45,577 bases of DNA from Candidatus Woesearchaeota archaeon. Its GTDB lineage: Archaea > Nanobdellota > Nanobdellia > Woesearchaeales > UBA12501. Location: the NCBI GenBank assembly GCA_013331695.1, contig DUFX01000036.1:1-45577 (forward strand), in the 5' to 3' direction. This document shows positions 3,001 through 28,600 of this stretch, one piece after another; the first letter of the stretch is position 1; every line of letters starts with the position of its first letter. The notes below the pieces were generated by a model. The model saw nothing but the letters and a program-made list of their open reading frames with translations, ran no database searches and was not told the DNA's origin. The position numbers and the translations under genes were made by a program.

Positions 3001-4981
3001 CTGCATCAAACATTGTTCGCAGTTCTTTTTGCAGTTCCGTATGCATACCTTTCTTTCCGGTTTGCAGTCTAAAGCTTTGATCCAGCTGGCTTACATATTC
3101 TTGATTATCCAAATGTTCGAAATCAATGCCGGTGTGATAACGCTGAGGATTTCCTAGTAAATCTTTTCCTTTGAAGACAATACCCACCGCTTTCGTTTTT
3201 CCATTCACAGTTTCCTCATAGCGTCCGATGCCTGATTTTCCAACACCAAGGTACGTTTCTTCTCCTTCCACTCTTGTAAGGATGTCATGATCAAATCCTA
3301 GCTCAGTTCCTTTCACATCCATCAATGCTGCAAGATTCTGCAGGCTTGCTTGAGGAATATCCCCTTTCAGTTTTCCTTCGGTTGCATCATAATAGTATTC
3401 CATGGTCAGAGATGTTCCTAAAATGGTTCTTCCACGAGGAAGATCCATTCCCTCTTCACCTCCCACTTCTTCAAGTTCTAGCTCATCGCGTATTTTTTCC
3501 AGCGCAGCTTCCCTGCCAAAGACCACAACCTGCTTTTGAATCGTCACTGCAGCCTCTGCGGTTTGCTCGCATCCTTCGCACGAAACACTGAACACATCCT
3601 GACCTCTTGTTGTCGGAGGTGTTTTCACCAGTTTCGCATGCTCTTGGGTTGTCTCAGCTGTAACTTGAAGATCTTTATAGACCGCATGCCCCTGCATGGT
3701 GAAGCGTTCGTTTGGATTTTCTTTTGCGTTGTCAGTGGTATAATCAAAAATTGCATCATCTTCTTTTCCTGTGAACACAGGTTTGTCAGGATCAGCACCA
3801 AGAACCAAAGATCCATCCATCTTGTAGTTTCGCACTTCCACTTTTCCCTTTACATAGACATTAATCGAAGCTCCATCGGTTTTAATCCAAACTTCTGCCT
3901 GTTGTTCTTGTGATGCTCCTGGTGGATTTTCTCGGAGTCCTTTCGCAATCTGTTCTGCTTGATCATCTCTCACCGCAGGGGGGGTATGTTGTGATTCGGT
4001 GCTGAATGCATCGAGATGGGTTAAGACAAATTTACCAGCTTCACGAGACTGTCCTTGTGAAATGGTTCCCACACCCGTTCTTTTATCTACAAGGGTTGTT
4101 TCTTTTCCATCAAATCCATACGTGTACACTTCTTTTTTGCCAACGGTCTGAAAGCGTCCATCTACAAAGATCGCATCCGTATTCATCACTGCATTATCTG
4201 CTTTGATATTGCCTTGTGCATCAACACCTAAGATTCCTTCGCGATTTTCAAAGCGCATTTCTTGTCCATCAACCGTCAAGGTTCCGCTGGCTTGTCCTTC
4301 AACAATCATGCTTTCCTGTGTCACAATAACCTTTGCGTCACCGCTTGGCTCGATAATATGCTCTCTTCCCTGTTTATCTTTGACAAACAGCACGTTATCC
4401 TGCATGCGTGTTGCTTCAACGTTGTCGCCTTTCAATGCCAGTGTGTGTTCAGCATCTTCTTTTTTGTATTGGATATGGAATCCATCAGCTACAGCAGTGA
4501 TCCCGATTACTTGGCGATTGTTTTCATAATCCTTCAGATTGATAGGAACTCCTCCTGACGTTAAGGTTTCCTTTGCAGGATCGTAGACGACATTTCCTGC
4601 AGAAGCATCAAACTGATAGTTTGCTTTATAGCGCTGGCTGAAATAAGATTGTGCACCCTCACGTGCTTGCTGAATCATGCCGGGAGTTTGGAAATATTGC
4701 TGGCTTGCTTGCAGATCTCGTCCTGCATTTGAGGGATTGTTGAAGTATCTCAGATCCAGTGCTCCATTTTTTCCAATATTCGCATGATTTTGATAGTAAA
4801 GGGTTGCAAGCTGGTCTGTATATTGCGTGGTTAAGTATCGCTCTTGATCTTCCGGCTTCAAGTTCTTGAAATCTTGTTCGCTGAGATGTTCTCCGGGTTG
4901 TGGTTGTTGATCTTTCTCTTCAAGAGCGAACGTAGAGAACGATAACCCTGCCAACAGCATGCAAACTATTAAAATCCACAT
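2..4981 (-). CDS. giant secreted protein, 3' end beyond the window edge (at least 1660 aa)
   Basis: Absent from the ORF track because it has no stop inside the window. Hand translation of the minus strand from the ATG at 4981-4979 (MWILIVCMLLAGLSFSTFALEEKDQQ..., signal-peptide-like) stays open to position 2. I checked the frame at 4561, at 3061 and at the window start. The plus-strand ORFs at 52-4558 are short, overlapping and L/S/R/C-rich, as expected for antisense shadows. The N-terminal third looks beta-rich, followed by a long A/E/K/Q-rich helical region. No catalytic motif recognised. Confidence 0.75.
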   Translation of the reverse strand, partial: MWILIVCMLLAGLSFSTFALEEKDQQPQPGEHLSEQDFKNLKPEDQERYLTTQYTDQLATLYYQNHANIGKNGALDLRYFNNPSNAGRDLQASQQYFQTPGMIQQAREGAQSYFSQRYKANYQFDASAGNVVYDPAKETLTSGGVPINLKDYENNRQVIGITAVADGFHIQYKKEDAEHTLALKGDNVEATRMQDNVLFVKDKQGREHIIEPSGDAKVIVTQESMIVEGQASGTLTVDGQEMRFENREGILGVDAQGNIKADNAVMNTDAIFVDGRFQTVGKKEVYTYGFDGKETTLVDKRTGVGTISQGQSREAGKFVLTHLDAFSTESQHTPPAVRDDQAEQIAKGLRENPPGASQEQQAEVWIKTDGASINVYVKGKVEVRNYKMDGSLVLGADPDKPVFTGKEDDAIFDYTTDNAKENPNERFTMQGHAVYKDLQVTAETTQEHAKLVKTPPTTRGQDVFSVSCEGCEQTAEAAVTIQKQVVVFGREAALEKIRDELELEEVGGEEGMDLPRGRTILGTSLTMEYYYDATEGKLKGDIPQASLQNLAALMDVKGTELGFDHDILTRVEGEETYLGVGKSGIGRYEETVNGKTKAVGIVFKGKDLLGNPQRYHTGIDFEHLDNQEYVSQLDQSFRLQTGKKGMHTELQKELRTMFDAEAKIGPDGRCLNEACTRAVGASLKLAAEQRTLMQEDLKAQNALYRALAAGARADGKSTKELDRAILRNKKEFDRLAGEVAELTRQDLEEQRLFESQALAAERNQPLEKRPHEELAQIGQDRIKAQRISDDNNVGKNQIMRIKAQIDALTRRNEEEKDVPPWKFAALREKIAQIEAQNAARGEEIIKIQQKYNGDYVVLAKISGDLGKHDDEMLYADRLVQATADDDQANMLRAEATLKQADQRNLDEETRANLVNKALAFANQIQDPVLRAETMKGKQELVDQAIAQATFEKLNEQVREVVHQNSEEALEREYDLLGQLSLYALAKVEGVSWEELDKRYEGMAADEARKLRDAAYATLLLTKKGYSLNQIRTMSREQMRETLGETFGFAGEEERGEQDEINLGDMAQFHSRYLRYDARIAEGHEMNVNELFDRDMRDIDDLILRTHNDPAAAYDKLVELQQKYSPTRGKIADYQRLQQALKEAEDNMMEIGLTPELSWKVSQRTIGKEVGAKGLDLTAPLDFVGLAVKVGAGAVRLARAVDAVEDAVDAVQLARRAEKLGTVEKLVKVATATGDKIRPVTQAIGATVQPVGEALQPLKKGLEVVSRGVESVVDFARKDLAFDGFKPKFADNAGNNLVDARAALVRATREENAAEVERLRQEVLPRMQLIAEAETAYQQQRTGLGGAMRKVEGLGLAGTREQKQKVLQAADDWFVISRTSDDGNEILGAANRLKEAEKEYVKHLDIEAATETYFEKLLQAKLKPGEQLATAKPTLIKQAFEKAQAFAEEVMANLQGQPAFACSVCVITPDGRRVIQDASGNIIDEQKLVQAATDARHTIPEALAQSEPAMGLRVMEEAQQGALGKTPIDPLGNAKGTLASADVRRPATSSLGEAHADMLVQPAPGEPAYARVAEQEEAIREAASRELVQRIVRDEGEEAFRVEIVAKEEVVLPPIAKRPPVEDRVKNNLARIEAEEFVDASGPAREGIAPIQQRLEVWVDR

Positions 4982-5033
4982 AACTACTCTTTCCTTTCCT
5001 CTTTCCTTTCTTTGGGAGTTATTCATTTGTTGG

Positions 5034-6119
5034 TTATTCAACATAAAAGATCGCTCGTTCTTGCGTGCTTAATCCTCGCGTGTCGCTCGCTCGAATTACC
5101 ACTGCTTTTCTTCCCTTGATCTGCGGTGTAAAACTGAAGATTCCATCGGGATTGATGGGAATTTCAGGATTGTCGGAAACAAACAGGACTGCATCCCCTT
5201 CTTTATCAAAGGCTTCCAGTTCGTACTCAAATTTTACACCCTTCTTTAACGTAAAATCCTTGAGATTTTTGATGCGAGGTGCCGTGTTGCTTCGTGATTG
5301 TCTTTCACTGATCGTATTTTTTACAGCAAACCAGAAGATGAACGGAGCCTTGTTGTTCAGTTTGGTTTTCTCGTCATAGATTGAGTATGCAGTGCTCTCT
5401 TCATCATACGCAATGATTGAGATTATGACATCATATGCTTTGTTCAAATTCATAAAGTCAGAGAGATGCGATTTCTCAGGTTCAACAGCAATAAGATTGC
5501 TCATTTTTTCTGCAATTTCAAGTATGGTTCCTAATCGAAGCGGAATGGTTTTTGAAAGCGCGCCAAGGAGTTGCTCTCCTTCTTCTGTAATAATTTGCAC
5601 AGGGTAGTTTACCGCAATCGTGACCTCATCTTTTTTAATAAAGGCCTGTGCCCGCGGTTCTTTTTCTTGGATAACGATTCCTTGTGCAGTAAACTCGCCC
5701 CAGTCCGTGCATAAGGGAAGATTCTTTTCAATATAATGTGCGAGTTGTTCCTGCATCTCAACCAGGGGCGGCATGGTCTTCTGGCCTTCGATCACATAAT
5801 ACGGAAGCACACGCTCCTGCGTCAGGAGATTTTTCTCAAACATAGCAGGCTGTTTAAATTCCGCATCGTCATAGAATCTTCCTCCCTGGTGGCCAAACAA
5901 GTACAGCCCTGGAATAAGGATTTGTTCAAGACACTCCTGGACATAGACTTCAACTTGATGTTTGATTTGGTAGTTCTCGCTTTGTTTGTCTTCAACTTGC
6001 GTTTGGTCTGAGAAATAATACCATGCAACACCTACCAAAATCAAGAGGATCAGGCCTAGGATGATAAAGACGGTGACTTGTGCTTTTTTGTTTGCTTGAG
6101 TTTGTTTTGTTTGATTCAT
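5034..6119 (-). CDS. membrane-anchored hypothetical protein with a C-terminal Ig/cadherin-like beta domain
   Basis: 361-aa ORF with an ATG start. N-terminal TM helix (VTVFIILGLILLILVGVAWYYF). The C-terminal ~80 aa (FEYELEAFDKEGDAVLFVSDNPEIPINPDGIFSFTP...RASD) resembles cadherin-like/Ig-like repeats. Its start overlaps the stop of the upstream RHH gene by 4 nt. Confidence 0.7.
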   Translation of the reverse strand: MNQTKQTQANKKAQVTVFIILGLILLILVGVAWYYFSDQTQVEDKQSENYQIKHQVEVYVQECLEQILIPGLYLFGHQGGRFYDDAEFKQPAMFEKNLLTQERVLPYYVIEGQKTMPPLVEMQEQLAHYIEKNLPLCTDWGEFTAQGIVIQEKEPRAQAFIKKDEVTIAVNYPVQIITEEGEQLLGALSKTIPLRLGTILEIAEKMSNLIAVEPEKSHLSDFMNLNKAYDVIISIIAYDEESTAYSIYDEKTKLNNKAPFIFWFAVKNTISERQSRSNTAPRIKNLKDFTLKKGVKFEYELEAFDKEGDAVLFVSDNPEIPINPDGIFSFTPQIKGRKAVVIRASDTRGLSTQERAIFYVE

Positions 6120-6379
6120 ATACTTCCTCTGTCTCTCATGGTGTTGACTCCTTGTTTCTTACACTGTTTCTTGAGCAGTTCAAGGGCCTGTTCTTTGGTT
6201 TTAGAAGAAGGGGGTAATCTTGCAATATCTCTAAGAATCTCGTCTTGTTCAAGCTGCAGTAATTTTTCTCGAATCGCATCACGAATAAGCTCGGTTCGGG
6301 TGCTATACCGGTTTTTGATGAGTCTTTCATCTACTTCACTCAGAATTTTGTCCTCGAGCTTCAAGCTGATAATTTTCAA
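6116..6379 (-). CDS. ribbon-helix-helix (CopG/Arc/MetJ-type) DNA-binding protein
   Basis: 87 aa. The N-terminus, (M)KIISLKLEDKILSEVDERLIKNRYSTRTELIRDAIREKL, fits the RHH beta-strand plus two-helix pattern. The start codon is TTG. The TATA-like CTTTAAATAA (rc of 6405-6414) lies 26 nt upstream. It overlaps the next gene by 4 nt, which suggests one operon. Confidence 0.6.
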   Translation of the reverse strand: MKIISLKLEDKILSEVDERLIKNRYSTRTELIRDAIREKLLQLEQDEILRDIARLPPSSKTKEQALELLKKQCKKQGVNTMRDRGSI

Positions 6380-6404
6380 GGTAATACTATGTATATACTA
6401 AGTA

Positions 6405-6414
6405 TTATTTAAAG
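6405..6414 (-). promoter_or_regulatory. TATA box for the RHH / membrane protein / giant protein operon
   Basis: The minus strand reads CTTTAAATAA, 26 nt upstream of the TTG start at 6379. This fits a leaderless archaeal promoter. Confidence 0.45.
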
Positions 6415-6488
6415 ATTGAGGTGTTTTGGGCTCAAAAGGGCTCTGACAGGGTTAAACCCTATTTTTTTGAGAATTTTGTGTTACAACC

Positions 6489-6773
6489 TCATATGTCACT
6501 GGCGATATCCAACATTTTCTTAATGAAGATCTCTATCTCTTTTAATTTTTCTTTATCTTTATTCAAAGAGATTTGAAGACCATAGGAAGCTGGTTTTGTG
6601 ATAATCCAACCCTCTTTAATCAATTCTTGGCAGATCTTTTTTACATCTTTTCCAAGATGCGAAGGAAATCCACACGTTACGGTGTCGAAGGGTGTGTGCA
6701 CCCCGCCAAGAATCTTCTTTCTGCGAAGATGATACAGAATCGTTGCCTTTATTTTGTCTTCTTCAGTGATCAT
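6489..6773 (-). CDS. small hypothetical protein, possible winged-helix
   Basis: Internal ATG of the 151-aa track ORF (MITEEDKIKATILYHLRRKKILGG...KEGWIITKPASYGLQISLN). An AT-rich TATA-like sequence (rc of ~6797-6808) lies ~25 nt upstream. The longer N-terminal extension overlaps the divergent promoter and looks non-coding. Confidence 0.45.
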   Translation of the reverse strand: MITEEDKIKATILYHLRRKKILGGVHTPFDTVTCGFPSHLGKDVKKICQELIKEGWIITKPASYGLQISLNKDKEKLKEIEIFIKKMLDIASDI

Positions 6774-6842
6774 CAAAGAGGTGAATCCTTGTTCATTTTT
6801 AAATATTCTTATTTTTGAAATATAAAAACATAAAGAGAAACA

Positions 6843-6850
6843 TTTATATA
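6843..6850 (+). promoter_or_regulatory. TATA box (TTTATATA) for the 6874 gene
   Basis: TTTATATA lies 24 nt upstream of the ATG at 6874. Confidence 0.5.
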
Positions 6851-6873
6851 CTTGGTATACGCGATGGACCCTC

Positions 6874-7197
6874 ATGGAACCAGAAACCGTATTCGTCGAA
6901 ATTTTTGGAAAGAATCCATTAATGAGAATACTTGATTTTCTCATTACGTATCAAGCTTTTGACTACCCCCTTACCGAAATAGCCAAAAATGCAGGGGTCA
7001 GTTACTCTACACTTCAAACCTTTTGGGGAAATCTCGAGAAAAATGGTATCGTGATCAAAACACGTCGTGTCGGGAAATCAGATCTCTTTAAATTAAACAC
7101 CAAGAATCCGGCTGTAAAACAGTTAATCAAACTTGATTGGAATCTGATTAAAGGATCTGATGAAGTTGAAGATCGAGAAATCGAACTCGTTCACTAA
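6874..7197 (+). CDS. winged-helix transcriptional regulator
   Basis: 107 aa. ILDFLITYQAFDYPLTEIAKNAGVSYSTLQTFWGNLEKNGIVIKTRRVGKSDLFKLN fits an HTH, a wing and a beta hairpin. Confidence 0.65.
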   Translation: MEPETVFVEIFGKNPLMRILDFLITYQAFDYPLTEIAKNAGVSYSTLQTFWGNLEKNGIVIKTRRVGKSDLFKLNTKNPAVKQLIKLDWNLIKGSDEVEDREIELVH

Positions 7198-7286
7198 TCC
7201 ACCTTTATGCTGGAGCTTGGCATGGAAGAATTCTAGACCTCTTCTCTCTGTCCATTCTTACAACTTTTTATCGTAAAACAACAACA

Positions 7287-7294
7287 TTTATATA
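7287..7294 (+). promoter_or_regulatory. TATA box (TTTATATA) for vapBC
   Basis: TTTATATA lies 26 nt upstream of the ATG at 7320. This argues against the track start at 7299. Confidence 0.5.
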
Positions 7295-7319
7295 TTATAT
7301 GTTGTATATAGTATACACT

Positions 7320-7559
7320 ATGGCAATTGCGCAGGTCACACAGGCAGGGAACGTCTTTATTCCTAAACAATGGCGCGAGGAACTCGGCATTATACTTAAC
7401 AGTAGTGTTCTCCTGGAAAAGAAGAACCATTGCATCATTATTCAGCCTTTAAGGAAAAAAAATCTCCAAGATGCATTCAAAGACATTGACGAAGAGATCA
7501 AAAGAAAGAAAATTCACTTTACACTTAAAGAAGCTATCCAGGATGATTTCTATGGTTAA
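7320..7559 (+). CDS. vapB: AbrB/SpoVT-fold antitoxin (VapB-like)
   Basis: MAIAQVTQAGNVFIPKQWREELGI...IIIQPL matches the swapped-hairpin AbrB/SpoVT signature. The gene is small and its stop overlaps the PIN gene start (tATGGTTAA). Confidence 0.7.
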   Translation: MAIAQVTQAGNVFIPKQWREELGIILNSSVLLEKKNHCIIIQPLRKKNLQDAFKDIDEEIKRKKIHFTLKEAIQDDFYG

Positions 7560-7917
7560 ATTTATTGACGCCAATATTTTTATTCAACGCTGGAGTAATC
7601 CTCAAATAGCAGCTTTTCTCAATACGCTTAATCCTGAAGAACATGCAACTTCAGTTCTTGTTCTTGCAGAAGTCTATGATAAAATGGAGCTCAAAAAACT
7701 GACCCACGCCTTTTCTTACATTCGTGGGCTTATGGGCGCTCTTACAGTTTTTCCCATTATCCAAGACGATCTTTTTTGGGCGATTAAGAATCCACTTCCT
7801 CTGCGTATCAATGATCGTTTACATCTCGCTGTTATGAAAAGAAACAATATACAGGTTCTTATCTCTTATGATGCCGATTTTGATCATGATAAAAGCATGA
7901 TACGAGAAGAGCTCTAA
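7552..7917 (+). CDS. vapC: PIN-domain toxin (VapC-like ribonuclease)
   Basis: MVKFIDANIFIQRW... carries the first PIN acidic residue near position 6. Later acidic positions are present (LAEVYDKM, SYDADFDH). 121 aa, translationally coupled to the upstream antitoxin. Confidence 0.75.
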   Translation: MVKFIDANIFIQRWSNPQIAAFLNTLNPEEHATSVLVLAEVYDKMELKKLTHAFSYIRGLMGALTVFPIIQDDLFWAIKNPLPLRINDRLHLAVMKRNNIQVLISYDADFDHDKSMIREEL

Positions 7918-9662: not shown

Positions 9663-10076
9663 TTATTTTACTATTTCCATCCGCTCATCAACATCCTTAG
9701 CAATCTTCTTCAAATCTTCGCACGTTCTGTTGAGATCTTTTTGGATCTCTTCAACAACTGCTTGAAGATTTCCCACTCTTAGAAAATAGCGATTTTGATT
9801 GCTGATAACTAATCCTGCTTCCATCAATTTTGCGAGATGAAAAACAACCGTTCCTCGGCTGAGATGCGTTCGCAAGGCGATTTCATCTGAAGACAAAGGG
9901 ATATTCTGTTTTGCAGCACGAAGCAGTTCAATAAAGATGCGGAAGCAGGACTTATCTTTATCCCGTTCGCTAAACAAACCCAAAGAATCTCCCACCCATT
10001 GGAGTTCCTGATTAAGATTGCTGGCTCCTGGTTTTCTCAGCTTGACGATCGTAACGCGTTGATAGCAGATGTTCAT
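9663..10076 (-). CDS. ArsR/wHTH-family transcriptional regulator
   Basis: CFRIFIELLRAAKQNIPLSSDEIALRTHLSRGTVVFHLAKLMEAGLVISNQNRYFL fits an HTH plus wing. The TATA box TTTATATA (rc of 10101-10108) lies 25 nt upstream of the ATG. Confidence 0.65.
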   Translation of the reverse strand: MNICYQRVTIVKLRKPGASNLNQELQWVGDSLGLFSERDKDKSCFRIFIELLRAAKQNIPLSSDEIALRTHLSRGTVVFHLAKLMEAGLVISNQNRYFLRVGNLQAVVEEIQKDLNRTCEDLKKIAKDVDERMEIVK

Positions 10077-10177
10077 GCAGGAGATTCTTGGCAGAACGCC
10101 TATATAAATGTGTTGATCTGAGATCGACGGAGTGGAACGTTATAGCTTAAATGAATCCTCCATCATTTTAAAGTATT

Positions 10178-11251
10178 TCAATTTGCTTTTGCTATTATTC
10201 TTTTGAGATGTTCTAAGAATTCCTTTGTGTCAGCGAAGTAATTCGGATAAGCTTTTCTCAAGTCGTTTGCAGCATCTACTCCAACAAGAACTACATCATA
10301 CTCTTTTTTTCCTTGATTTCTTTTTTCTGCATGGGAATAATCTAAGATTGCCTTCTCTTCTCTCCCCTTTGAATAACTGGTTATGTTGAGTTTGCCGCCT
10401 GCAATGTCTAATTCTAACAAAAAATATTGAAATCTTTGTTTATCTCTGTGAACGGATTCAAAAACTTTAATTGCTTCTGTCCAACCACTCATTATTTTTA
10501 CTACCTTTAGTTCTTCTTCTTTTTTCTTTATTTGAGAATATAACTCATTCTTATATAGGGGGGTATTTGGGACGGGGGAAGTTTTCTCCATGACCGCAAA
10601 GGCGGAACTCACCAATTTAAAAAAATCCACCCATTCAGGAGTTCCTTCATGAGATTTAATTGCTTGTCTCGTAAAGAAATCAACCGTTTCAACGGCTGTT
10701 GCCCATTGGTGTTGCAATTTGGTTCTTATTTGAAGTTCTACAAGCAATCCATTATATTCTTTCTTTCCTTCTTTATCGCTTTTATACCGGTATATTAAAT
10801 GAATACTTCTATATCCATCATCTTTGGGATGTGTTATATAATCTTTTTCATTGACCTTTTTATGTTTTAAATCACTTTTTATATATCCTTCTTTGTAGAT
10901 TTTTTTTACGAGATCCATGTTGGACATTACTGCTCTGCAACCCGCAATGTCTTGCATTTGTGATAATTTCATGGTCGGCTCCTTGCCATGATATTTTCTT
11001 TTGAGTTTAAACAGAATAGAAGGTAATCTTTTCAATCGCTGAACTGCTAAGGCCTCAGGATCCATTTTTTCAGAGACTTGTTTTAATCTTACTTTGAACA
11101 CATGCAATGGATATTTATGAATGGCTCTCCAGTTATCTAATACATCTAATGCAGCATCAGTTTCTTGTGGGTCAGTTGTATCGCTAATCAAAACGCTTCC
11201 AGCCCAATCTACTTTAGAGTTGCTATATCCCTTTGGTTTTGTCCATTTCAT
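10178..11251 (-). CDS. stand-alone RelA/SpoT-domain nucleotide pyrophosphokinase with a ~150-aa uncharacterised C-terminal domain
   Basis: Synthetase-domain motifs are present: DIAGCRAV, DDGYRSIHLIY and ELQIRTKLQHQWATAVE. There is no HD hydrolase, TGS or ACT region. The gene is markedly AT-rich compared with its flanks. Confidence 0.8.
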   Translation of the reverse strand: MKWTKPKGYSNSKVDWAGSVLISDTTDPQETDAALDVLDNWRAIHKYPLHVFKVRLKQVSEKMDPEALAVQRLKRLPSILFKLKRKYHGKEPTMKLSQMQDIAGCRAVMSNMDLVKKIYKEGYIKSDLKHKKVNEKDYITHPKDDGYRSIHLIYRYKSDKEGKKEYNGLLVELQIRTKLQHQWATAVETVDFFTRQAIKSHEGTPEWVDFFKLVSSAFAVMEKTSPVPNTPLYKNELYSQIKKKEEELKVVKIMSGWTEAIKVFESVHRDKQRFQYFLLELDIAGGKLNITSYSKGREEKAILDYSHAEKRNQGKKEYDVVLVGVDAANDLRKAYPNYFADTKEFLEHLKRIIAKAN

Positions 11252-11272
11252 ACTTTTGCGGAGATATAAAAG

Positions 11273-11280
11273 TATATAAA
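11273..11280 (-). promoter_or_regulatory. TATA box (TTTATATA) for the RelA/SpoT-domain gene
   Basis: The minus strand reads TTTATATA 22 nt upstream of the ATG at 11251, which fits a leaderless transcript. Confidence 0.45.
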
Positions 11281-11286
11281 TGTTTG

Positions 11287-11384
11287 TTTTGCGCGGTTGC
11301 TTTTGAGTATAAAAATGGCAATTTGTTATAGGTATATAGTTTTTGCGCGGTTACTTTTTTTTATGTTTTGTATTTTGCGCGGTT
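11287..11384 (+). repeat. three direct copies of TTTTGCGCGGTT in the RSH/grpE intergenic region
   Basis: Exact 12-mers at 11287-11298, 11341-11352 and 11373-11384, with spacings of 54 and 32 nt. Each is GC-rich within AT-rich spacer. Confidence 0.85.
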
Positions 11385-11536
11385 ATTCATTTGAAATCAT
11401 CTCGTTGCTCCCTGTGATTTTGGTTCATTTCCGCAACATTTAAATATAAGTTGTCTACTCTAGGTAGTCTAGGTTGACTTAAAGTAAACAAATGACTTAA
11501 AATAACCAAGTAAAGTCAGCCAATCGGGGTGCAACC

Positions 11537-12283
11537 ATGAACGGATGTTGTAAAGAAAATAAAGGGAACAAAGGCGCCTCAGCGTCTCAAGCCCAAGACG
11601 CTTGCTGTCAAAGCAAGGGTCCATCAGATCAAAAGAGTTCTTGTTGTAAAGACGAATCGTCTAACAAGACCACTGCGAAAAAAGATAGCCAAAAAGGTAG
11701 CTGTTGTTGCCAGGGACGTTCAGAAGGAGCGTCCTCTGAGCACGACGTTGCATACAAAGAAAGCGATGAAGAAATTGCCATGCAATCAGGATCCTGCTGT
11801 ATGGAAGATGCTGAAGAAATTACAGAAACCGTTGACGATCCTTCAACCCTTCAAATCCAAGAACTTACAGACACGCTCAAACACGTCCAAGCTGATTTTG
11901 AAAACTACCGCAAACGAACAGAAAAACTCAATCAAGAATTTCAAAAATTTGCAAATCAACAAGTCTTCAACCAACTCCTTCCCCTCATCGAACAGTTTGA
12001 CTTTGCTCTGCGCAATACCAAAAACCAAGAACAATTTGTAAAAGGTGTTCAGATGATTCGGGATCAATTCAAGCACTTCCTTTCGCAGCAAGGATTGCAG
12101 CCTATTCCTGTACAAGAACACGAAATCTTTAATCCGCTCTGCCACGAAGCTATTGCTGCAGAAGAAGCAAAAGATAAACACGGAAAACCTCTGCAAAAAA
12201 ATGCGATTATTCAAGTCCTTGCAGACGGATACACCTTGCACGGCAAAGTCGTTCGTCCTGTGAAAGTAAAAGTTGCAAAATAA
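11537..12283 (+). CDS. grpE: GrpE nucleotide exchange factor with a Cys-Cys-rich N-terminal extension
   Basis: GrpE core: LKHVQADFENYRKRTEKL...LLPLIEQFDFAL...GYTLHGKVVRPVKVKV. The first ~95 aa contain five CC/CCC clusters. Confidence 0.9.
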   Translation: MNGCCKENKGNKGASASQAQDACCQSKGPSDQKSSCCKDESSNKTTAKKDSQKGSCCCQGRSEGASSEHDVAYKESDEEIAMQSGSCCMEDAEEITETVDDPSTLQIQELTDTLKHVQADFENYRKRTEKLNQEFQKFANQQVFNQLLPLIEQFDFALRNTKNQEQFVKGVQMIRDQFKHFLSQQGLQPIPVQEHEIFNPLCHEAIAAEEAKDKHGKPLQKNAIIQVLADGYTLHGKVVRPVKVKVAK

Positions 12284-15576: not shown

Positions 15577-16713
15577 ATGGCAACTTCACAACCATCCTCT
15601 CGAAAAGAATCCTTTGAGAAGCTCGCACAGTTAATTGAGATTCTCGGGGAAAAGTGTGTCTGGGATAGAAAACAAACTCCTGAGACAATTTTCAAAGCAT
15701 TGCAGGGTGAAGTCAAAGAAGTTGAGCAGGCATTGCAAAGCAATGATGCACACGAACTGCAAGAAGAAATTGGTGATGTGCTGTGGGATGTTCTGTTTTT
15801 TATTAACCTTGCCAAAAAACGAGGCTTGTTTGACGTCAAGGATGTTCTTGATTTTATGCATGAGAAAATGGTGAAACGGCACCCGCATGTATTTCTTCCT
15901 CAAGATCGTGCGTATGCTGAACGTTTAGGTTTGCGCAGCAAGGATGGAAAATCTGCTGATCCGGTTGATATCAACTTTATTGAGAGCACCTGGGGGCAAA
16001 TTAAAAAAGAGGAGCGGGAGCAACGACCTAAACGAGATAAAAAACTGATTCACAACGGCATTAAAGCAGTTATTTTTGATTGGGACGGTGTTTTGCTGAA
16101 TACACTTCCTACTCAATTCAAGATCTATAAAAAAATAGAAGAAGCCATGGGCCTGCGCTTCGGTTTTGATCTTGATCAGCAGGACAATGGAAATCATTTT
16201 GAATGCAATTTTAAGTTGCATTACAACCAGGCGCTTGGCCGCGATGCAACAGCTGATGAAATTGCAAAAGCATCCCGCATTTATCGGGAGCACCTCACGC
16301 ATTTTAACGACGGTTTAAAACTCTTTGAAGGAATCGTTCCTCTTATTCACGAGTTGAAACAGAGAGGGTATAAACTCGGAATTGTTTCCAATAGTTTTCG
16401 TGATTTTATTATTGAAAAACTGGAAGAAGCAGGAATTTTTCACTGCTTTGATGAAATCATGGGCCACGAACACGGCATCCTCAAGCCAAACCCCGACGGT
16501 ATTTTGGAGTGCATCCACCGCATGGGTATTTTTCCTGAAGAAACCGCCTATGTCGGAGATATGGACGGCGATGTGATTGCTGCAAAAAAAGCCAATGTAA
16601 AAAAAATGATTGCAGTAACCTACGGTTATCATACTGAAGAAAAATTAAAGCCCCATGATCCCCATCATCTTATTAATAAACCAACCGAGCTGTTAACCAT
16701 TCTCATTTCGTGA
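15577..16713 (+). CDS. fusion protein: MazG-type NTP pyrophosphohydrolase (N-terminal) plus HAD phosphatase (C-terminal)
   Basis: N-terminal half: [12 protein letters not shown]...EVKEVEQAL...[20 protein letters not shown]...MVKRHPHVF (MazG EExxD/E helices). C-terminal half: [18 protein letters not shown] and [17 protein letters not shown] (HAD motifs I-IV). Confidence 0.8.
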
Positions 16714-17951: not shown

Positions 17952-19133
17952 ATGGTTGATTTGGAATCTCATGTAGAACGTTTTTGGATTACACCGAATC
18001 AACTCTATGACGATGGCTATGCCCTAGGCAGACGTCTTTGGGATGAAGGTGTACACCCCACTCATCTCCTTGCTTTGCTAAAACATGCTCCTGTTGCTTT
18101 GCCGGTGCATGGTTCTCTCAAGTTGCATAATGGTGCTGGAGAAAACGATGATGCCACAAAAATAAAACATGGTGTGATTGATCCTGCTGATCCTCATCGT
18201 TATCTTGACGGTGTAGGTGAAGGAGATCATGTTCTTGTTATTGGTGACGTTGCTGATAAAGGTTCTGAAATGCGTACAGTCAGTGATGCTGTTCGAACAA
18301 CGGGTGCAGAAGTCGTTTCAGCTGTACTCTATGCCCGTCCTGAAACTGGGGGGATTGATTTTGTTGGTCAGCGTCTTGCTGGTGAAGTTGTTTTTCCCCA
18401 CCAAATGCACATCAGAGACGGAGAAGAAGAGCGTCGCCTTACGCAGCAAGAAGCAGAACAACATCGTCCTGCACTTTTTGAAGATCGGAAAACTCTTTTT
18501 ACCGAACGTGTGTTTGCTCATGATCCAGACACCCATACCAATTTTGAGTTTCGTGACGCAGACAAGGTCTATGCAATGGCGTATCATCTTGCAAGAAAAA
18601 TTAAACGTGAGATTGACCGCTATAGAATTCCTCACGAAGTCGTGAGCGTCTGGCGCGGAGGAGCTCCTGTTGGTGCCGTGGTTGCCGAAACCTTAAAATA
18701 TTTTGGATACGATCTTCCTCATCATCATGTTCTGAAGGCTGAATCGTATACCGATCGGGCGAGCGGAAGTCTTGAAATTAAAGGATTTTCCGCTCTTGCA
18801 TCAAAACTACGAAAAGGCCAGACGATTTTGTTGATCGATGAGCTCATGGATTCGGGGCAGACCTTAGGCATACTCAAACAAGAATTTCAAAAAGTTGTTG
18901 GAAAAGAAGGACGTGTCTATCTTGCAGTTATAGATTGGAAATCAGCTAAGAATGAAACAGGAAAAACTTTTGGTGATTATGGTTTTGTTCCTTATACTGA
19001 ACCAGAATTTTATCTTAACATGACAACGCGATGGATTGTCGCACCGCATGAGTTAGAACCAGAGGTTGTTCCACGCCCTTTGCTGGAGAAACATCATTTT
19101 CTTGCGAAGTATCTTCCTGAATCACGTGTCTAG
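17952..19133 (+). CDS. protein with two tandem type-I phosphoribosyltransferase domains (Gpt/Hpt-like)
   Basis: Two PRPP-binding loops: HVLVIGDVADKGSEMRTV and TILLIDELMDSGQTLGIL. Each is followed by a Gpt-like (V/I)V(F/A)PH(Q/E) motif (VVFPHQ and WIVAPHE). Confidence 0.7.
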   Translation: MVDLESHVERFWITPNQLYDDGYALGRRLWDEGVHPTHLLALLKHAPVALPVHGSLKLHNGAGENDDATKIKHGVIDPADPHRYLDGVGEGDHVLVIGDVADKGSEMRTVSDAVRTTGAEVVSAVLYARPETGGIDFVGQRLAGEVVFPHQMHIRDGEEERRLTQQEAEQHRPALFEDRKTLFTERVFAHDPDTHTNFEFRDADKVYAMAYHLARKIKREIDRYRIPHEVVSVWRGGAPVGAVVAETLKYFGYDLPHHHVLKAESYTDRASGSLEIKGFSALASKLRKGQTILLIDELMDSGQTLGILKQEFQKVVGKEGRVYLAVIDWKSAKNETGKTFGDYGFVPYTEPEFYLNMTTRWIVAPHELEPEVVPRPLLEKHHFLAKYLPESRV

Positions 19134-23632: not shown

Positions 23633-25636
23633 ATGGAAAAAAGAAGCGTGATAGGACCCAAAGAACTTATGGGTAGCTTGAAGCATCGTGTGCAAAAGAT
23701 GCTTCCCTTTTACAGTTCTCAACCATCAAGCAGGCATCATTCTACTCGTGAAAACCGGTGCCAAGGGATGCGCAATGTTGCGGTTGTCAAAGTGAGCAAT
23801 CCCCAACATAAAACCGAGACGATGCTGATTGTTTCGTTTGCGGTGCTCATTTTTGTCGTGTTCTTTTCTAGTTTTAGCAATACTCCTCCTTTTACAGGAA
23901 ATGTTGTACAGGATGCGGTGCAAATTAACCAATGCGGATTCAATCGCTGGGAAAACGGCAAAACCCATGTTTTAACACAAGACCTTGTTTTAAGTGCAGG
24001 AATTGATTGTTTAAACATTCAAGAAAAACAGGATATTGTTCTTGATTGTCAAGGCTATAGTATTACTACTGATCCTGCAGCAACGTTTCGTCAGCCTCCA
24101 AAAGGAATTTATTTGAGCGGTAATCGTCTAACGGTTCGTAATTGTCGTATTGCAAATTTTCCTTGGACAGGCATCAGTATCGTGGGGAATCACACCCTTC
24201 TTGAACATAATACCATCGAAAATAACCGTGAAGGTGTTGAAGTTGCAGCGATTCCTGCTCCACGCTTTGGTTTTAGTATTACTTCAACTACACTCCAAAA
24301 TAATCTGATCCAAAACAATGTTCGTTTTGGCGTTGTCATGAGGGGGTACGACAGTATCGTGCGTGGAAATGTCATCCAAGGGAATGGAAGAACAGGATTA
24401 GCACTTGTCGATACTGCAGTGGTCGAGAATACGGTGCTCTGCAATAACAACCGAGAAAATTTACCCGATAAAAAAGATCTTAAGTGTGGTGGCGGAAGCA
24501 ACAATCCCTCGCAAGGACAAGGAAACTTTATAGGAACGTTGGAGCGTTGTTTCGTACTTAACGCTCTTGCTTGGCCGACTGAATCAGATTATCAAGCGTG
24601 CGATCAAGCTCCTCCTCTTTCTCCTGATGTGGGTGTTCCTGTACAGGCTCCTTCGCGGGCTCCCCGCGACGCAGCATGTCCTTCACACCAGAATACCGAA
24701 TGTCAAGAAGGTTCAGTTTGCAGAAAACTCTTTGTGAGAGGAGATCCTACCCACTGGTCAGGAAGTAAATATTTCTGTAAAGGTCCTATGGCAGATGGCG
24801 GAATTTGCGAGCGAAATGACCAATGTGGTGCAGGCAAGAGTTGTGTGAATCAGAGATGTACTGCACCGCAACAACAAGGTCAAGAGCAAGCTCAACAGCA
24901 AGAACAACAACCACCGCCTCAGGCTGGCCGTGCGTGTGTGAATAATGCTGACTGTGGCGACGGTTTGCGTTGTCTTTCCCTGATTTGTCAAACAAGAGTG
25001 TGCAGTGAGACAGATGGAGGGAATGATCCTGCTGTTCCGGGAGTTATTACACTGGATAATTCGATTACTCCTAATATTGTTTCTCAAGATACCTGTCAAA
25101 ATGACGCATCGGTTCTCGAGTATTTCTGTTTGCCTAGTCATGAAAGTTCTCGGCAGGTTATGATGTGTCCTGGAGGAAGCACCTGTCAGACCAATGCTGA
25201 AGGTGTGGGTGCCTGTGTTGCTCCTGAAGCTCCACCACATCCACCAGCCGAACTTTCTGAAAATGATGCGTGCGGAGAAAATATTCCAACTCCCTGCAGA
25301 CAAGGTTTGCTTTGTAGAAAGAGCAATCCTGCCAGTCAAACTTTACAATGTCTTCTCCCTTCGGTGCAAGGCGGATTTTGTGAAAGTACTGATCATTGCA
25401 GTGCAGGTTTAACATGTCAAACAGGGCATTGTCTTCCCCCTCGACAGTGTAGAACTCCGGCAGACGAACAAGCACACGGCGGAGACTGCAACCATTGTGT
25501 AAGCATGCCTGAACTCATGCGATATATCGCTGAGTGGAACAATCAAGATCCTGAACAACGGCAACTTTCAGCGATTATGCTGGTTACTCAAGGATATTAT
25601 GATTCATTAGCTGATCCAGCATGTCAACAAGCATGA
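23633..25636 (+). CDS. membrane-anchored surface protein: right-handed beta-helix (PbH1/NosD-like) domain plus Cys-rich modules
   Basis: Signal-anchor MLIVSFAVLIFVVFFSSF. Beta-helix repeats: NCRIANFPWTGISIVGNHTLLEHNTIENNREGVEV, LQNNLIQNNVRFGVVM and VRGNVIQGNGRTGLAL. The C-terminal half contains many Cys residues, Q/P linkers, and a CSETDGGNDPAVPGVITLDN module shared with the next gene. The start is uncertain (TTG 23615, ATG 23633, or later Met codons). Confidence 0.8.
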   Translation: MEKRSVIGPKELMGSLKHRVQKMLPFYSSQPSSRHHSTRENRCQGMRNVAVVKVSNPQHKTETMLIVSFAVLIFVVFFSSFSNTPPFTGNVVQDAVQINQCGFNRWENGKTHVLTQDLVLSAGIDCLNIQEKQDIVLDCQGYSITTDPAATFRQPPKGIYLSGNRLTVRNCRIANFPWTGISIVGNHTLLEHNTIENNREGVEVAAIPAPRFGFSITSTTLQNNLIQNNVRFGVVMRGYDSIVRGNVIQGNGRTGLALVDTAVVENTVLCNNNRENLPDKKDLKCGGGSNNPSQGQGNFIGTLERCFVLNALAWPTESDYQACDQAPPLSPDVGVPVQAPSRAPRDAACPSHQNTECQEGSVCRKLFVRGDPTHWSGSKYFCKGPMADGGICERNDQCGAGKSCVNQRCTAPQQQGQEQAQQQEQQPPPQAGRACVNNADCGDGLRCLSLICQTRVCSETDGGNDPAVPGVITLDNSITPNIVSQDTCQNDASVLEYFCLPSHESSRQVMMCPGGSTCQTNAEGVGACVAPEAPPHPPAELSENDACGENIPTPCRQGLLCRKSNPASQTLQCLLPSVQGGFCESTDHCSAGLTCQTGHCLPPRQCRTPADEQAHGGDCNHCVSMPELMRYIAEWNNQDPEQRQLSAIMLVTQGYYDSLADPACQQA

Positions 25637-28600
25637 AAACAACAACCCATCTTGGAACGAGAACAACACGGATTTTGTTACTGATACTTATACTCCTTTT
25701 CTCTTTACCGGTTGTCTTTGCAAATACGGTTGAACGTTCCTTTTCTACACAAACCGTTCAACCACAAACTGAAATAACTGTTACGCTGACGATTGATGTA
25801 ACCGAAGCACAATTCTACAGCTGGCAAGAAACCGTTCCTGCGGGATGGACGATTGTACGAACCTCTCGAGGGCAAATTGCGGGAAGAACGATTGCCGATG
25901 TTGTCTTTGGTGGTGTTCAAGATACAACTGCCGAATATGTTGTTCGATCGCCTGATGCTCTGGGTCCTCATGCTTTCAGAGGAACATACATGTTTAGTGG
26001 AATGGCGCAAGAAGTACCGATTGCAGGACCTGATACGGTAACGGTACAAGCTCGCCTTGGTGGTGCGGGTGCTCCTTGTGGCGTTGATGCAGATTGCGGC
26101 GCTGATAACTTATTTTGCGTTGACTTTGTGTGCGACTCCTCCCTATGTACTGATACTGATGGGGAGAACTCGCCAATAGTTGCAGGTGTTGCAACCTTGG
26201 ATAATGAGGTTGCTGTTGATGTTGTTAAAAAGGATGAATGTTTTAATCCTAGTCAGACAAACGAATGGTACTGTCTTTCTCCTGAAGGCGGTTTGGCTAA
26301 CCTTCATGTTCCTTGTCCTGAAGGAACAACGTGTCAACCAAATGCTGAGGGTATTGGCGTGTGTCGAGCAGCTCCGCCCCCACCCCCACCCCCACCTGGC
26401 GGTGGTTTAGGAACTCTTGATCAAGCGTGTCGTCGTGCTGAACCCAAATGTGATGTGAATCTTGTATGTAATCTAGACAATATTTGTGAAGAAGCACCGC
26501 CTCCTGCTGAGCATTGCACCGATTCTGATAATGGTGATACTCCTGCTGTTCAAGGTACCACGCATGCAAGAGGTGGTCCTGGTGCTGAATTTATTGACTT
26601 CACTGACCGATGTGATGGAAATGTTTTGACTGAATTTGCTTGCGGAGCAGATGATATTCTCTCTGAATTTACTCATGATTGCAGCGCCGAAGGAAAGATA
26701 TGTCAAAATGGCGCTTGTGTTTTAGAAGAAGCAGGTGAAGTCCATCTTGGGGGAGGTGCATTAACATGTAACGATCCTTGTGTTCCTGAACTCGTGAATG
26801 CTTGCCGTCAATTTGTTGAAGATGAGGCACAGCGTCCTCAGCTTGTTCCTTGTGTGATGAGTGCTCTTGGTCGTGCCGATGCTCCTGTTGTTTGTCGTCT
26901 TGATCCTGCATGTGCTACACTTTTCCGTGAAGCAGAACTGTGCAACGTGCTTGAGGCCGGTGCAAAACAAACGTGTTTGAATGAAGTGCAAACTCGTCAT
27001 GCTGCTATTGCTGGAACGTGTGGTAGTCAACTCACGGACTTAACATATTGCTTGATTAGTCAAGGATTTAATGCAGGTGGTCTTGGCCAAGCTTGCCTTG
27101 ACAATCGTTGTTTAGAAGGATTTGGCTGTGATGCTCAAGAGATTTGTAGAAAACAATGTGAAAATAGTGATGTTTGCGACGTTGCGGGTGGAGAAAGTTG
27201 TAGGGAAGGCTTGTGTGTTGTTCCGCCACCACCTGTGGGAATCTTAGGCAGAGTATGTCGTGATGCTGAACCGAAGTGCGACGTGGGACTTGTCTGTAAT
27301 GCAGAAAATGTTTGTGAAGAAGCTCCTCCTGAAGAACCTATTCCTAAGCAAGAAGGAGAGGCTTGTGGTCCTGGTGATGTGTGTCGTGAAGGTTTGGGCT
27401 GTTATGGAGATATCTGTCAAACTTCTTCATGTACTGATACGGATGAAGCAGATGATCCTGCAGTTCCTGGTGTTGCGACCTTGGACAATTCAGTCAGTGA
27501 TGATATCGTGCATAACGATGCGTGTGTTGAAGGTCAAAATCAAGTAACGCAATTCTCTTGCGATGCTTTTGGTGGTATAAGCGAAAGTACGGTTGCATGT
27601 CCACCAGATACAACGTGTCAACCAAATGCTGAGGGTATTGGCGTGTGTCAGGGTGGAGAACCTGTTGTCGGACCTGCTCTTGTCTGCCTCGATCCTGACG
27701 GATTTGATACCTCTATTCGTAGTGTTACCTTTATGGGAGATCATGAATTTGCAGATCAATGTATTTCCGATGATACCTTACTTGAAGGCACCTGTAATGC
27801 AGACGGTAATGATATTGTTGATGTGCGTGTGCTCTGTCCAAATGGTTGTGAAGGTGGCGGATGTAGAATAGCTCCTCCTGACGGTGATTTAGGAACTCTT
27901 GGTCAGAGTTGCCGTGATGCTGATCCGAAGTGCGACGTGGGACTTGTATGTAATCTAGACAATATTTGTGAAGAGGTTGGAGGACCACCGGGTGCCGGCG
28001 GGGGAGCAGGTTCTCTTTCCTGTGAAGATCCTTGTGTTCCTCAACTGCTTGAATCATGTAGAAATCTTGTTGAACCCGAGGAAACACGGGAGCAACTTGT
28101 TCCTTGTGTGATGGATGCAATGATTCGTGCAGAAGCTCCTGTGCAATGTACGCTTGCTGATGGGTGTCTCAATGCAATTCGTGAAGGTCGTGCTTGCGAA
28201 GCGCTTCCTGAAGCTGAACGTCAAGCCTGTACAGCGGAAGTGAATACGCGTCATGCTGCTCTTCTTGGAACGTGTGGTAGTCAACTCACGGACTTAACAT
28301 ATTGCTTGATTAGTCAAGGATTTAATGCAGGTGGTCTTGGCCAAGCTTGCCTTGACAATCGTTGTTTAGAAGGATTTGGCTGTGATGCTCAAGAGATTTG
28401 TAGAAAACAATGTGAAAATAGTGATGTTTGCGACGTTGCGGGTGGAGAAAGTTGTATTGAAGGGCTCTGTGTTATCCCCCCACCTCCTGTTGGAATTTTA
28501 GGAACAGCATGCCGTGATGCTGATCCGAAATGTGATGCAGATCTTGTTTGTGATCCAGAAAATATTTGTTCAACCCCGCCTCCAGTTTGTGAAGATAATG

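Follow-up and report, generated by a model that had tools for sequence, protein, structure and literature searches.

A CapRel-type toxin gene of DPANN archaea and CPR bacteria lies in a mobile cassette whose promoter boxes may be read by the toxin domain

The minus-strand gene at positions 10178-11251 of contig DUFX01000036.1 from a Candidatus Woesearchaeota archaeon (assembly GCA_013331695.1; the analysed stretch of 45,577 nucleotides is hereafter called the window) encodes a protein of 357 residues that is a new member of the known CapRel family of fused toxin-antitoxins. Together with an operator array and a leaderless promoter, the open reading frame (ORF) of the gene makes up a self-contained cassette of roughly 1.2 kb, and this cassette occupies unrelated genomic contexts across DPANN archaea and bacteria of the Candidate Phyla Radiation (CPR). 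Within the cassette, a single residue of the toxin domain, residue 159, varies in concert with a single base of the promoter boxes. On balance, we favour the view that the gene encodes an autoregulated abortive-infection toxin of the CapRel type, in which a loop of the toxin domain would read the operators of its own gene. The elements of the cassette in the window are as follows.

10178-11251, minus strand: coding sequence of the CapRel-type fused toxin-antitoxin, 357 residues, with the stop codon at 10178-10180 (ORF list, PADLOC family PDC-S33, PDB entries 7ZTB and 9ERV)
11253-11264, minus strand: degenerate fourth site TCTCCGCAAAAG at about -13, between the TATA box and the ATG; a full box in many relatives
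11273-11280, minus strand: TATA box TTTATATA, 21 nt before the ATG; TTTAAATA is found at the same offset in relatives
11287-11298, minus strand: box 3, AACCGCGCAAAA, at position -47, abutting the transcription factor B recognition element (BRE) and the TATA box
11341-11352, minus strand: box 2, AACCGCGCAAAA, at position -101
11373-11384, minus strand: box 1, AACCGCGCAAAA, at position -133, the upstream limit of the conserved cassette, where the similarity to non-syntenic loci starts

A leaderless promoter had been proposed for this gene in the original prediction, and the TATA-like TTTATATA 21 nt upstream of the ATG is consistent with this view. The three exact copies of AACCGCGCAAAA are all located upstream of the gene, and none was found elsewhere in the window. 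The same layout recurs in non-syntenic related loci (designated by L numbers), with boxes at about -133, -101 and -47, followed by AAAGATTTAAATAG and often by one more box at about -14. Between unrelated contexts the similarity sets in abruptly at box 1 and extends as far as the stop codon, which delimits a unit of about 135 bp plus the ORF. A combined pattern of box 3 and TATA box, ACCGCNCAAANNAAAGATTTAAATA, had 27 matches in metagenomes. All 27 precede this ORF, and in 26 of them the ORF starts 21-22 nt past the TATA box; at L092, where the longest-ORF rule had picked the GTG at +9, it is at +21 that the conserved methionine is located.

Each locus carries 2-4 direct boxes of the form AACCGC(G/C)CAAAA. 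In the regions of up to 260 nt upstream of the gene at 61 loci, the CCGCGCA core was present 89 times on the gene strand and not once on the opposite strand, and its density was 5.6 per kb in these upstream regions versus 0.026 per kb elsewhere, where it is thus about 200-fold rarer. The spacings between boxes (31-33, 44, 52-56, 84-87, 97-98 and 106 bp) lie close to integer multiples of about 10.7 bp (R of 0.81), which places the boxes on one face of the helix. The loci in CPR bacteria have kept the box, but there it abuts a sigma-70 promoter with -35 and -10 elements instead of the BRE and TATA box, as exemplified by the promoter of L040, CGCGCAAC-TTGATA-17 nt-TAAAAT.

The variable base of the boxes is uniform within a locus, most loci having GCGCA and a minority GCCCA, the box at -14 included. 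The only mixed array is that of L096, where three GCGCA boxes in the upstream 200 nt are combined with a -14 box CCGCCCA and the protein has D159. When all box positions were compared with all protein columns in a matrix of the first 68 loci, residue 159 was the sole perfect association. Likewise, residue 159 was the column of the protein alignment that tracked the box type, the frequency difference for the next-best column being 0.75. The resulting counts are as follows.

Asp159: GCGCA boxes, 59; GCCCA boxes, 0
Asn159: GCGCA boxes, 1; GCCCA boxes, 17

This amounts to concordance in 76 of 77 cases, with a p-value of 4e-16 in Fisher's exact test, a value that includes no phylogenetic correction. 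The box type changes at least 7 times on trees that were built without the loop containing residue 159. At least 5 changes were found on the tree of residues 1-150 (5-8 upon bootstrapping) and 8 on the tree of residues 170-357, all trees being neighbour-joining trees. Since the box type switches repeatedly on these loop-free trees, the cassettes with C-type boxes do not represent one hidden lineage. We also considered whether linkage or recombination could underlie the covariation, but this was rejected, because residues encoded nearer to the promoter do not co-segregate with the box type and at least 4-5 switches are required on each of the trees of residues 1-150, 1-80 and 170-357. Furthermore, box types were called blindly from residue 159 of nine database proteins with Asn159, the DNA being unseen, and 8 of the 9 calls were correct, with C-type boxes at P0065, P0066, P0071, P0097, P0067, P0062, P0078 and P0098.

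The basic loop that contains residue 159, YKSDKEGKKEYN, connects the G-loop strand to the strand with the catalytic ExQIRT motif, and it was modelled by AlphaFold2 with a predicted local distance difference test score (pLDDT) above 90. At L116 (positions 1-147; protein P0097), three of the four boxes have further changed, in concert, to GCCTA, and the loop reads KSNDEG, with N159 and a unique K160D substitution. As far as can be judged from the sequences of this single lineage, neighbouring residues of the loop would thus appear to read neighbouring base pairs. No other coupling between a box position and a residue was convincing beyond residue 159 and the single K160D/GCCTA case. Boxes were also looked for upstream of bacterial relatives with 35-47% identity, and none were found. 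The related Acidobacteriota homologues L071 and L078 have in common a TTTGGGCAATAA about 50-60 nt upstream, which is the reverse complement of a TTGCCCAAA-like box and thus in the opposite orientation. The loop of these two proteins is without the SDK/SNK motif, and TTTGGGCAATAA is probably coincidental.

Based on the covariation, the protein would bind its own boxes through the basic loop 156-167 of the toxin domain, with residue 159 (Asp or Asn) reading the variable G/C base pair. That the protein recognises its own boxes in this manner appears probable from sequence comparison, and we hold this with somewhat more assurance than the reading of the cassette as a whole. The more far-reaching proposal, that a CapRel-type immune protein also employs its catalytic domain to recognise specific DNA sequences in its own promoter, with residue 159 setting the specificity for GCGCA or GCCCA and with matched pairs re-invented at least 5 times, would seem to have an even chance of being right. 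Such repeated re-invention suggests selection for mutually orthogonal, self-insulated cassettes that spread between DPANN archaea and CPR bacteria.

The assignment of the protein to the CapRel family rests on its full length. In the original prediction it was described as a stand-alone RelA/SpoT-domain protein with alarmone-synthetase motifs, without hydrolase, TGS and ACT domains, and with about 150 C-terminal residues of unknown nature. The motifs are indeed present (DIAGCRAVMS, DDGYRSIHLIY and VELQIRTKLQHQWA), and Pfam gives RelA_SpoT only (residues 71-185, E-value of 3e-20), with no HD domain. The C-terminal part, however, is not an unknown domain, as residues of about 205-357 align to the linker, the pseudo-zinc-finger antitoxin domain and the C-terminal helix of CapRel-SJ46, for which the structure has been solved. 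In a phmmer search of all PDB chains, the best solved relatives were 7ZTB and 9ERV (E-value of 9e-45, residues 9-352 against chain residues 15-369), whereas structures of housekeeping small alarmone synthetases (SAS) matched with E-values of about 1e-12 at best and only over residues of about 60-192. FaRel2 gave no sequence match in the PDB search at E-values up to 1. A comparison of the predicted C-terminal structure with antitoxin domains of the CapRel type had been proposed, and the AlphaFold2 model of the 357-residue protein (pLDDT 85.6, predicted template modelling (TM) score 0.81) agrees with 7ZTB, which is annotated as 'Salmonella tRNA pyrophosphokinase CapRel', with TM scores of 0.79/0.82 over 358 columns in Foldseek. 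SAS structures superpose on only about 190 residues of this model, which has about 150 further structured residues beyond the single-domain SAS architecture of about 210 residues. The parts of the protein are as follows.

10637-11251, minus strand: N-terminal toxSYNTH (toxin) domain, residues 1-205, with the Pfam RelA_SpoT match to residues 71-185 at 10697-11041
11036-11038, 10934-10936 and 10811-10813, minus strand: codons of the key toxSYNTH residues R72 and R106 (coordinating ATP) and Y147 (G-loop), mapped from R79, R116 and Y155 of CapRel-SJ46
10751-10786, minus strand: basic loop Y156-KSDKEGKKEY-N167 between strands 150-155 and 170-177; the codon of D159, the proposed base-reading residue, is at 10775-10777
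10442-10639, minus strand: helical linker or 'anchor' region, residues 205-270, with modelled helices 205-221, 234-248 and 250-270, aligned to the anchor helices of CapRel-SJ46
10280-10441, minus strand: pseudo-zinc-finger antitoxin/sensor domain, residues 271-324, with modelled strands 274-282, 287-294 and 318-324 and the helix 298-311 between strands 2 and 3
10181-10279, minus strand: C-terminal autoinhibitory element, residues 325-357, with the YXXY motif Y335-P-N-Y338 (10238-10249) and the C-terminal helix
Grouped with the C-terminal autoinhibitory element, minus strand: docking-interface residues V321, L322 and A334, mapping to V338, L339 and A351 of CapRel-SJ46

The topology of the modelled pseudo-zinc-finger domain, its strands and helix being followed by two helices, agrees with that given for CapRel-SJ46 (PMC9712102). 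In that protein, R79 and R116 coordinate ATP, Y155 belongs to the G-loop and Y352 and Y355 form the YXXY motif, and substitutions in the interface or the YXXY motif make it constitutively toxic (PMC9712102). Among 176 sequences of the archaeal clade, the equivalents of the three catalytic residues (R72, R106 and Y147) are each 100% conserved, and those of V338, L339, A351, Y352 and Y355 (V321, L322, A334, Y335 and Y338) are 97-100% conserved. A77 of CapRel-SJ46 corresponds to a Val and A341 to a Gly in the window protein. The most variable stretch of the protein comprises residues of about 221-320, i.e. the linker and the pseudo-zinc-finger domain, and in CapRel this region sets the phage specificity (PMC9712102). 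A full-length match was also obtained to the hidden Markov model (HMM) of the PADLOC candidate family PDC-S33 (E-value of 6e-120), whereas the score against the NCBIfam YjbM equivalog NF053588 was 64 bits versus a cutoff of 320; the protein is therefore not a housekeeping SAS. Altogether, we consider a CapRel-type architecture with autoinhibition as very likely. The view that the gene encodes a toxic SAS (toxSAS) or CapRel-like toxin rather than a housekeeping enzyme is thus supported by the full-length homology, the fold, the conserved catalytic and autoinhibitory residues and the sub-cutoff YjbM score. As to a role as defence or stress toxin, the CapRel-type identity agrees with this part of the original prediction, and the defence role itself would follow from homology.

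By homology to CapRel-SJ46, the toxSYNTH domain would act as a pyrophosphokinase that transfers pyrophosphate from ATP onto the 3'-CCA ends of tRNAs, thereby blocking translation (PMC9712102; Kurata et al. preprint). In the resting state, the pseudo-zinc-finger domain would fold back, and the YXXY motif would plug the site for ATP that lies between R72 and R106. Once bound to the variable C-terminal domain, a viral protein would hold the enzyme open, which would lead to abortive infection. By analogy, an antiviral or abortive role is, in our judgement, the better bet. Binding to the boxes would most likely repress the transcription of the gene itself. Repression is favoured because the boxes abut the BRE and TATA box or the -35 element and one of them sits between the TATA box and the start codon, although between repression and activation we regard the question as evenly balanced. 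Autorepression would keep the toxin at a low, buffered level without a separately titratable antitoxin. Any competition between DNA and tRNA for the protein, or any response of DNA binding to the trigger, is a matter of speculation.

To place the gene among its relatives, the nearest 120 database clusters were inspected. All of these show 63-86% identity and have lengths of about 355 residues, the named ones being labelled Woese-, Pace-, Nano- or Aenigmatarchaeota, and the cluster that holds the window protein bears the label Candidatus Woesearchaeota. When one genome per species was scanned, 147 relatives were identified, among which a clade with identities of 54-77% extends over many DPANN phyla and includes a few bins labelled Patescibacteria or 'bacterium'; relatives from Acidobacteriota, Nitrospirota and sphingomonads begin at about 47% identity. 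The clade loci with bacterial labels are low in GC content and truly bacterial as judged by neighbouring marker genes, namely those for trigger factor, TsaE, RuvC and YebC at L039, Pol I at L040, DnaN at L048, and DnaX, LexA and DinB at L058. Clustering of 666 neighbouring ORFs from 80 related loci revealed no recurrent neighbour or partner gene, which rules out a conserved partner or antitoxin gene and bears out the earlier remark that the gene has no neighbouring small ORF. The grpE-dnaK context of the window is kept in only one of these 80 loci, L019. Orthologues at one common position throughout the lineage, which would have spoken against the original prediction, are thus not what is seen. 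The element CTTATATTTAAATGTT is common to the window (11440-11456) and L019 (about 2600-2620), in both on the grpE side of the intergenic region. It presumably represents the grpE promoter on the other strand and marks the end of the ancestral synteny and the start of the cassette.

With respect to composition, the GC content of the gene is 0.349, whereas the window has 0.435 and the adjacent genes have 0.41-0.45; among about 35 ORFs the gene ranks second lowest, about 2.4 standard deviations under the mean. However, its GC content at third codon positions (0.291) is matched by the core genes at 17952-19133 and 25621-29907. The lower GC content relative to the flanks that had been noticed in the sequence is thus real, but the gene is not an extreme outlier, and a strongly foreign composition was rejected. 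In 50 loci examined, the gene was AT-richer than its flanks in 42, and gene GC content tracked that of the host partially (slope of 0.47), the gene being 7-16 points lower in hosts with more than 40% GC. The scattered non-syntenic contexts, the clade that crosses the boundary between archaea and bacteria, and the AT-richness relative to the flanks support horizontal spread, including spread across domains, as had been presumed when the gene was first described as acquired. In the lineage of the window and L019 the insertion is old, the identities between the two loci being 72% for the toxin protein, 74% for DnaK and only 40% for GrpE. Since the toxin protein is as conserved as DnaK in this pair, strong purifying selection must add to the high identities.

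Viral carriage of the archaeal clade was considered and set aside, as only one doubtful contig (L081) was encountered and the remaining viral hits were relatives with 36-41% identity. In the viral collection, the archaeal clade is represented by L081 only, which is from a bin labelled giant-virus metagenome-assembled genome (GVMAG); the gene (4508-5569, 62% identity) is preceded by boxes at -84 and -28, and the contig is probably a mis-binned DPANN contig. Cassettes are located among ribosomal-protein genes in, for example, L012-L014, L020 and L116, and a P-loop ATPase of about 420 residues is encoded within 4 kb of the cassette in six loci (L001, L016, L023, L040, L043 and L061). HicAB and VapBC are found beside the cassette in L114, Fic in L119 and HepT in L123.

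These contexts bear on the possibility that the cassette is a selfish, autoregulated addiction module without antiviral function, which would persist and spread because its loss or misregulation is deleterious. The cassette is indeed compact, self-contained and horizontally mobile, its sequence is very highly conserved, it is located among housekeeping genes rather than in defence islands, and other toxin-antitoxin genes are located nearby in the window (VapBC-like, 7299-7917) and in L114, L119 and L123. However, a single polypeptide lacks the differential stability of toxin and antitoxin that classical addiction requires, and the C-terminal sensor region is the most variable one, as in antiviral CapRels. 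Moreover, the fused CapRels that were tested protect against phages (PMC9712102), and PADLOC lists the family as a defence candidate. We therefore regard pure addiction as unlikely, albeit with some weight.

It is also conceivable that the boxes are read as single-stranded RNA (ssRNA), or single-stranded DNA, and not as duplex, in which case they would serve as a leader for the autoregulation of translation, or as an RNA that acts as inhibitor or decoy at the tRNA-binding face, in analogy to the inhibition of RelQ by ssRNA or to the antitoxin repeats of type III systems. The loop is part of the catalytic domain and the homologous enzyme binds tRNA; the SAS enzyme RelQ is known to bind ssRNA in a sequence-specific manner (cited in PMC11782079); the orientation of the boxes is strictly strand-specific (89 versus 0); a TATA-like element after box 2 could start a transcript with boxes 3 and 4; and the chemistry of the Asp to Asn and G to C exchanges suits single-stranded bases as well as a duplex. 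Against this, boxes 1-3 lie upstream of the sole strongly conserved TATA box, conservation starts at box 1 with no promoter before it, the position of the boxes relative to the core promoter element is kept in the archaeal and bacterial versions, and the box spacing matches the DNA helical repeat. A known RNA element or structured leader upstream of the gene was likewise rejected, as the Rfam search of this region gave nothing below an E-value of 0.1 and the fold z-score was +1.06. Pairing between boxes is excluded by the fact that the G to C change is concerted rather than compensatory. Duplex operators are thus favoured, because the boxes are promoter-proximal and helically phased, no conserved promoter precedes box 1 and there is neither RNA structure nor an Rfam match, and we consider the single-stranded readout to be rather unlikely.

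Archaeal genomes encode many winged helix-turn-helix (wHTH) regulators. The boxes might accordingly be operators of a host transcription factor, the covariation with residue 159 being indirect. One such regulator, an ArsR/MarR-type wHTH gene with its own TATA box, is located at 9663-10076 on the minus strand, 101 nt downstream of the toxin gene and on the same strand, and DNA-binding activity of CapRel is not reported in the literature searched. However, no regulator gene accompanies the cassette, and the window wHTH is absent from all other loci (tblastn, phmmer and HMM searches). As it is found beside the cassette in no other locus, it is not a conserved partner, and it was dismissed as the box-binding regulator; its similarity to a wHTH beside the cassettes of L012-L020 is marginal. 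A host regulon is also not in line with the box-plus-TATA module preceding this gene only (27/27) and the box being about 200-fold rarer elsewhere. Furthermore, the boxes persist in CPR bacteria despite their different transcription apparatus, and a host factor would not explain why the box type has switched together with a single residue of the encoded protein at least 5 times independently. This explanation is therefore improbable. Lastly, the protein might be a housekeeping SAS that makes (p)ppGpp or (p)ppApp and carries a regulatory C-terminal extension, as the RelA_SpoT domain and catalytic motifs are present and no sequence signature cleanly divides tRNA-modifying from alarmone-producing toxSAS (Kurata et al. 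preprint). This is very improbable, since the YjbM score lies far under the cutoff, it is CapRel rather than RelQ or RelP that is homologous over the full length, the YXXY interface for autoinhibition is conserved, and the distribution is patchy and non-syntenic.

Several observations nonetheless weigh against an autoregulated CapRel-type defence cassette. The conservation of the protein, about equal to that of DnaK in the window and L019, means unusually slow evolution for an immune sensor. For the archaeal clade, no association with viruses or defence islands was found, the window gene itself being located among housekeeping genes. Taxonomy labels of metagenome-assembled genomes are unreliable. 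The boxes upstream of the BRE could equally be compatible with activation. The equivalent loop in CapRel-SJ46 is acidic, no precedent was found in the literature for a toxSYNTH-domain loop as a sequence-specific DNA reader, and literature searches likewise found no reports of CapRel or toxSAS proteins that bind their own promoters. Also, one of the nine blind predictions was discordant, as L120 (P0068) combines N159 with GCGCA boxes on a contig of 1.5 kb with 1.5x coverage. At this locus (141-340) the loop reads 'KTNKDG' and the GCGCA-type boxes have degenerate 5' flanks (A/TGCGCA). This state may represent an intermediate stage of evolution, or it may result from erroneous sequencing. The side chain of Asn both donates and accepts hydrogen bonds, and Asn159 with a G-type box would therefore be the expected intermediate if Asn tolerates both bases.

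With regard to known systems, the closest one is CapRel-SJ46 of Salmonella phage SJ46 (7ZTB and 9ERV; Zhang et al. 2022, 2024). Both proteins are single polypeptides of about 360 residues that share the toxSYNTH domain, helical anchors, pseudo-zinc-finger domain and C-terminal helix end to end at 31-32% identity, and they have in common the ATP-site arginines, the G-loop tyrosine, the YXXY motif, the interface residues and a sensor region that is the most variable part. In contrast to CapRel-SJ46, which is known from enterobacterial prophage hosts, the window clade occurs in DPANN archaea and CPR bacteria, with no viral context found; it has a basic 'SDK/SNK' loop in the place of the acidic one, a conserved promoter-box array and a much higher overall conservation. 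The PhRel-ATphRel (phage Phrann gp29/gp30) and CapRel-ATcapRel systems consist of homologous toxin and antitoxin modules, the antitoxins being homologous to the C-terminus of fused CapRels (PMC9712102), but they are encoded by two genes, whereas the present system is a single ORF that lacks a partner gene at every locus. In FaRel2-ATfaRel2, a tRNA-pyrophosphorylating toxSAS with a pseudo-zinc-finger antitoxin, this domain also bars ATP from the toxSYNTH active site (PMC11782079), but neutralisation occurs in trans. RelQ and RelP (YjbM and YwaC) share the catalytic fold (TM score of about 0.75 on the target), and the ssRNA binding mentioned above concerns RelQ, but they are without the C-terminal antitoxin domain, and the inferred substrate of the window protein is another one. 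In type II toxin-antitoxin systems such as Phd-Doc, RelBE and MazEF, repeated sites are likewise present in the system's own promoter and negative feedback of the kind proposed here keeps the toxin low; in those systems, however, a dedicated DNA-binding domain of the antitoxin reads the operator, whereas the specificity-linked residue is located in the toxin domain here. PDC-S33, which matches over the full length, is one of the PDC families, which are unvalidated single-gene candidates (PMC12988326); no mention of it was found in the literature searched, where a link to CapRel is not stated. Surveys of archaeal defence report that PADLOC PDCs are enriched in DPANN archaea and do not mention CapRel (PMC12988326), and translation-targeting toxSAS enzymes have been noted to occur in 'even some archaea' (Kurata et al. 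preprint).

The window contains a second low-GC patch at 6116-7917 (0.36-0.38) with small regulator-type genes and a probable VapBC pair, from which we conclude that the neighbourhood holds other acquired genes of the toxin-antitoxin type. The genes of this patch are as follows.

6116-6379, minus strand: ribbon-helix-helix (RHH)/CopG-like ORF
6874-7197, plus strand: wHTH-like ORF
7299-7559, plus strand: AbrB/SpoVT-like ORF
7471-7917, plus strand: PIN-domain gene (Pfam E-value of 4e-10), overlapping the AbrB/SpoVT-like ORF

On the other side of the cassette, GrpE (11537-12283, plus strand) has an N-terminal extension of about 100 residues (11537-11840) that is rich in CC, CCC and CCCC runs (MNGCCKENK...CCQSK...SSCCKD...GSCCCQG...GSCCMED) and may be a metal- or redox-sensing tail; GrpE of L019 (165 residues) is without it. 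Between dnaK and dnaJ, a fusion of a MazG nucleotide pyrophosphohydrolase and a haloacid dehalogenase (HAD) phosphatase is encoded at 15577-16713 (plus strand), and L019 has a different small ORF in the dnaK-proximal position. Further downstream, at 23633-29907 (plus strand), a beta-helix/NosD-like protein of 667 residues is followed by an ORF of 1428 residues with no Pfam match and with high GC content at first and second codon positions, which may encode a large surface protein.

CapRel is the textbook case of direct sensing of viral proteins in bacteria. What is new relative to known CapRels is a conserved DPANN/CPR clade, a portable operator array and a toxin-domain specificity residue. 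If our reading is true, no CapRel clade would have been described from archaea before this one, it would carry the logic of direct sensing into ultra-small symbionts whose defences are poorly known, and the PADLOC candidate PDC-S33 would gain a mechanistic identity. The coupling between the boxes and residue 159 bears on the question of how a fused toxin can be expressed safely without a separately titratable antitoxin, the proposed answer being self-repression via a loop of the toxin domain. A defence cassette of this kind would be regulated under both archaeal and bacterial promoters because it carries its own regulator. Finally, the family would provide compact, naturally orthogonal repressor-operator pairs that work beside archaeal and bacterial core promoters, and a clean natural case of co-evolution of protein-DNA specificity.

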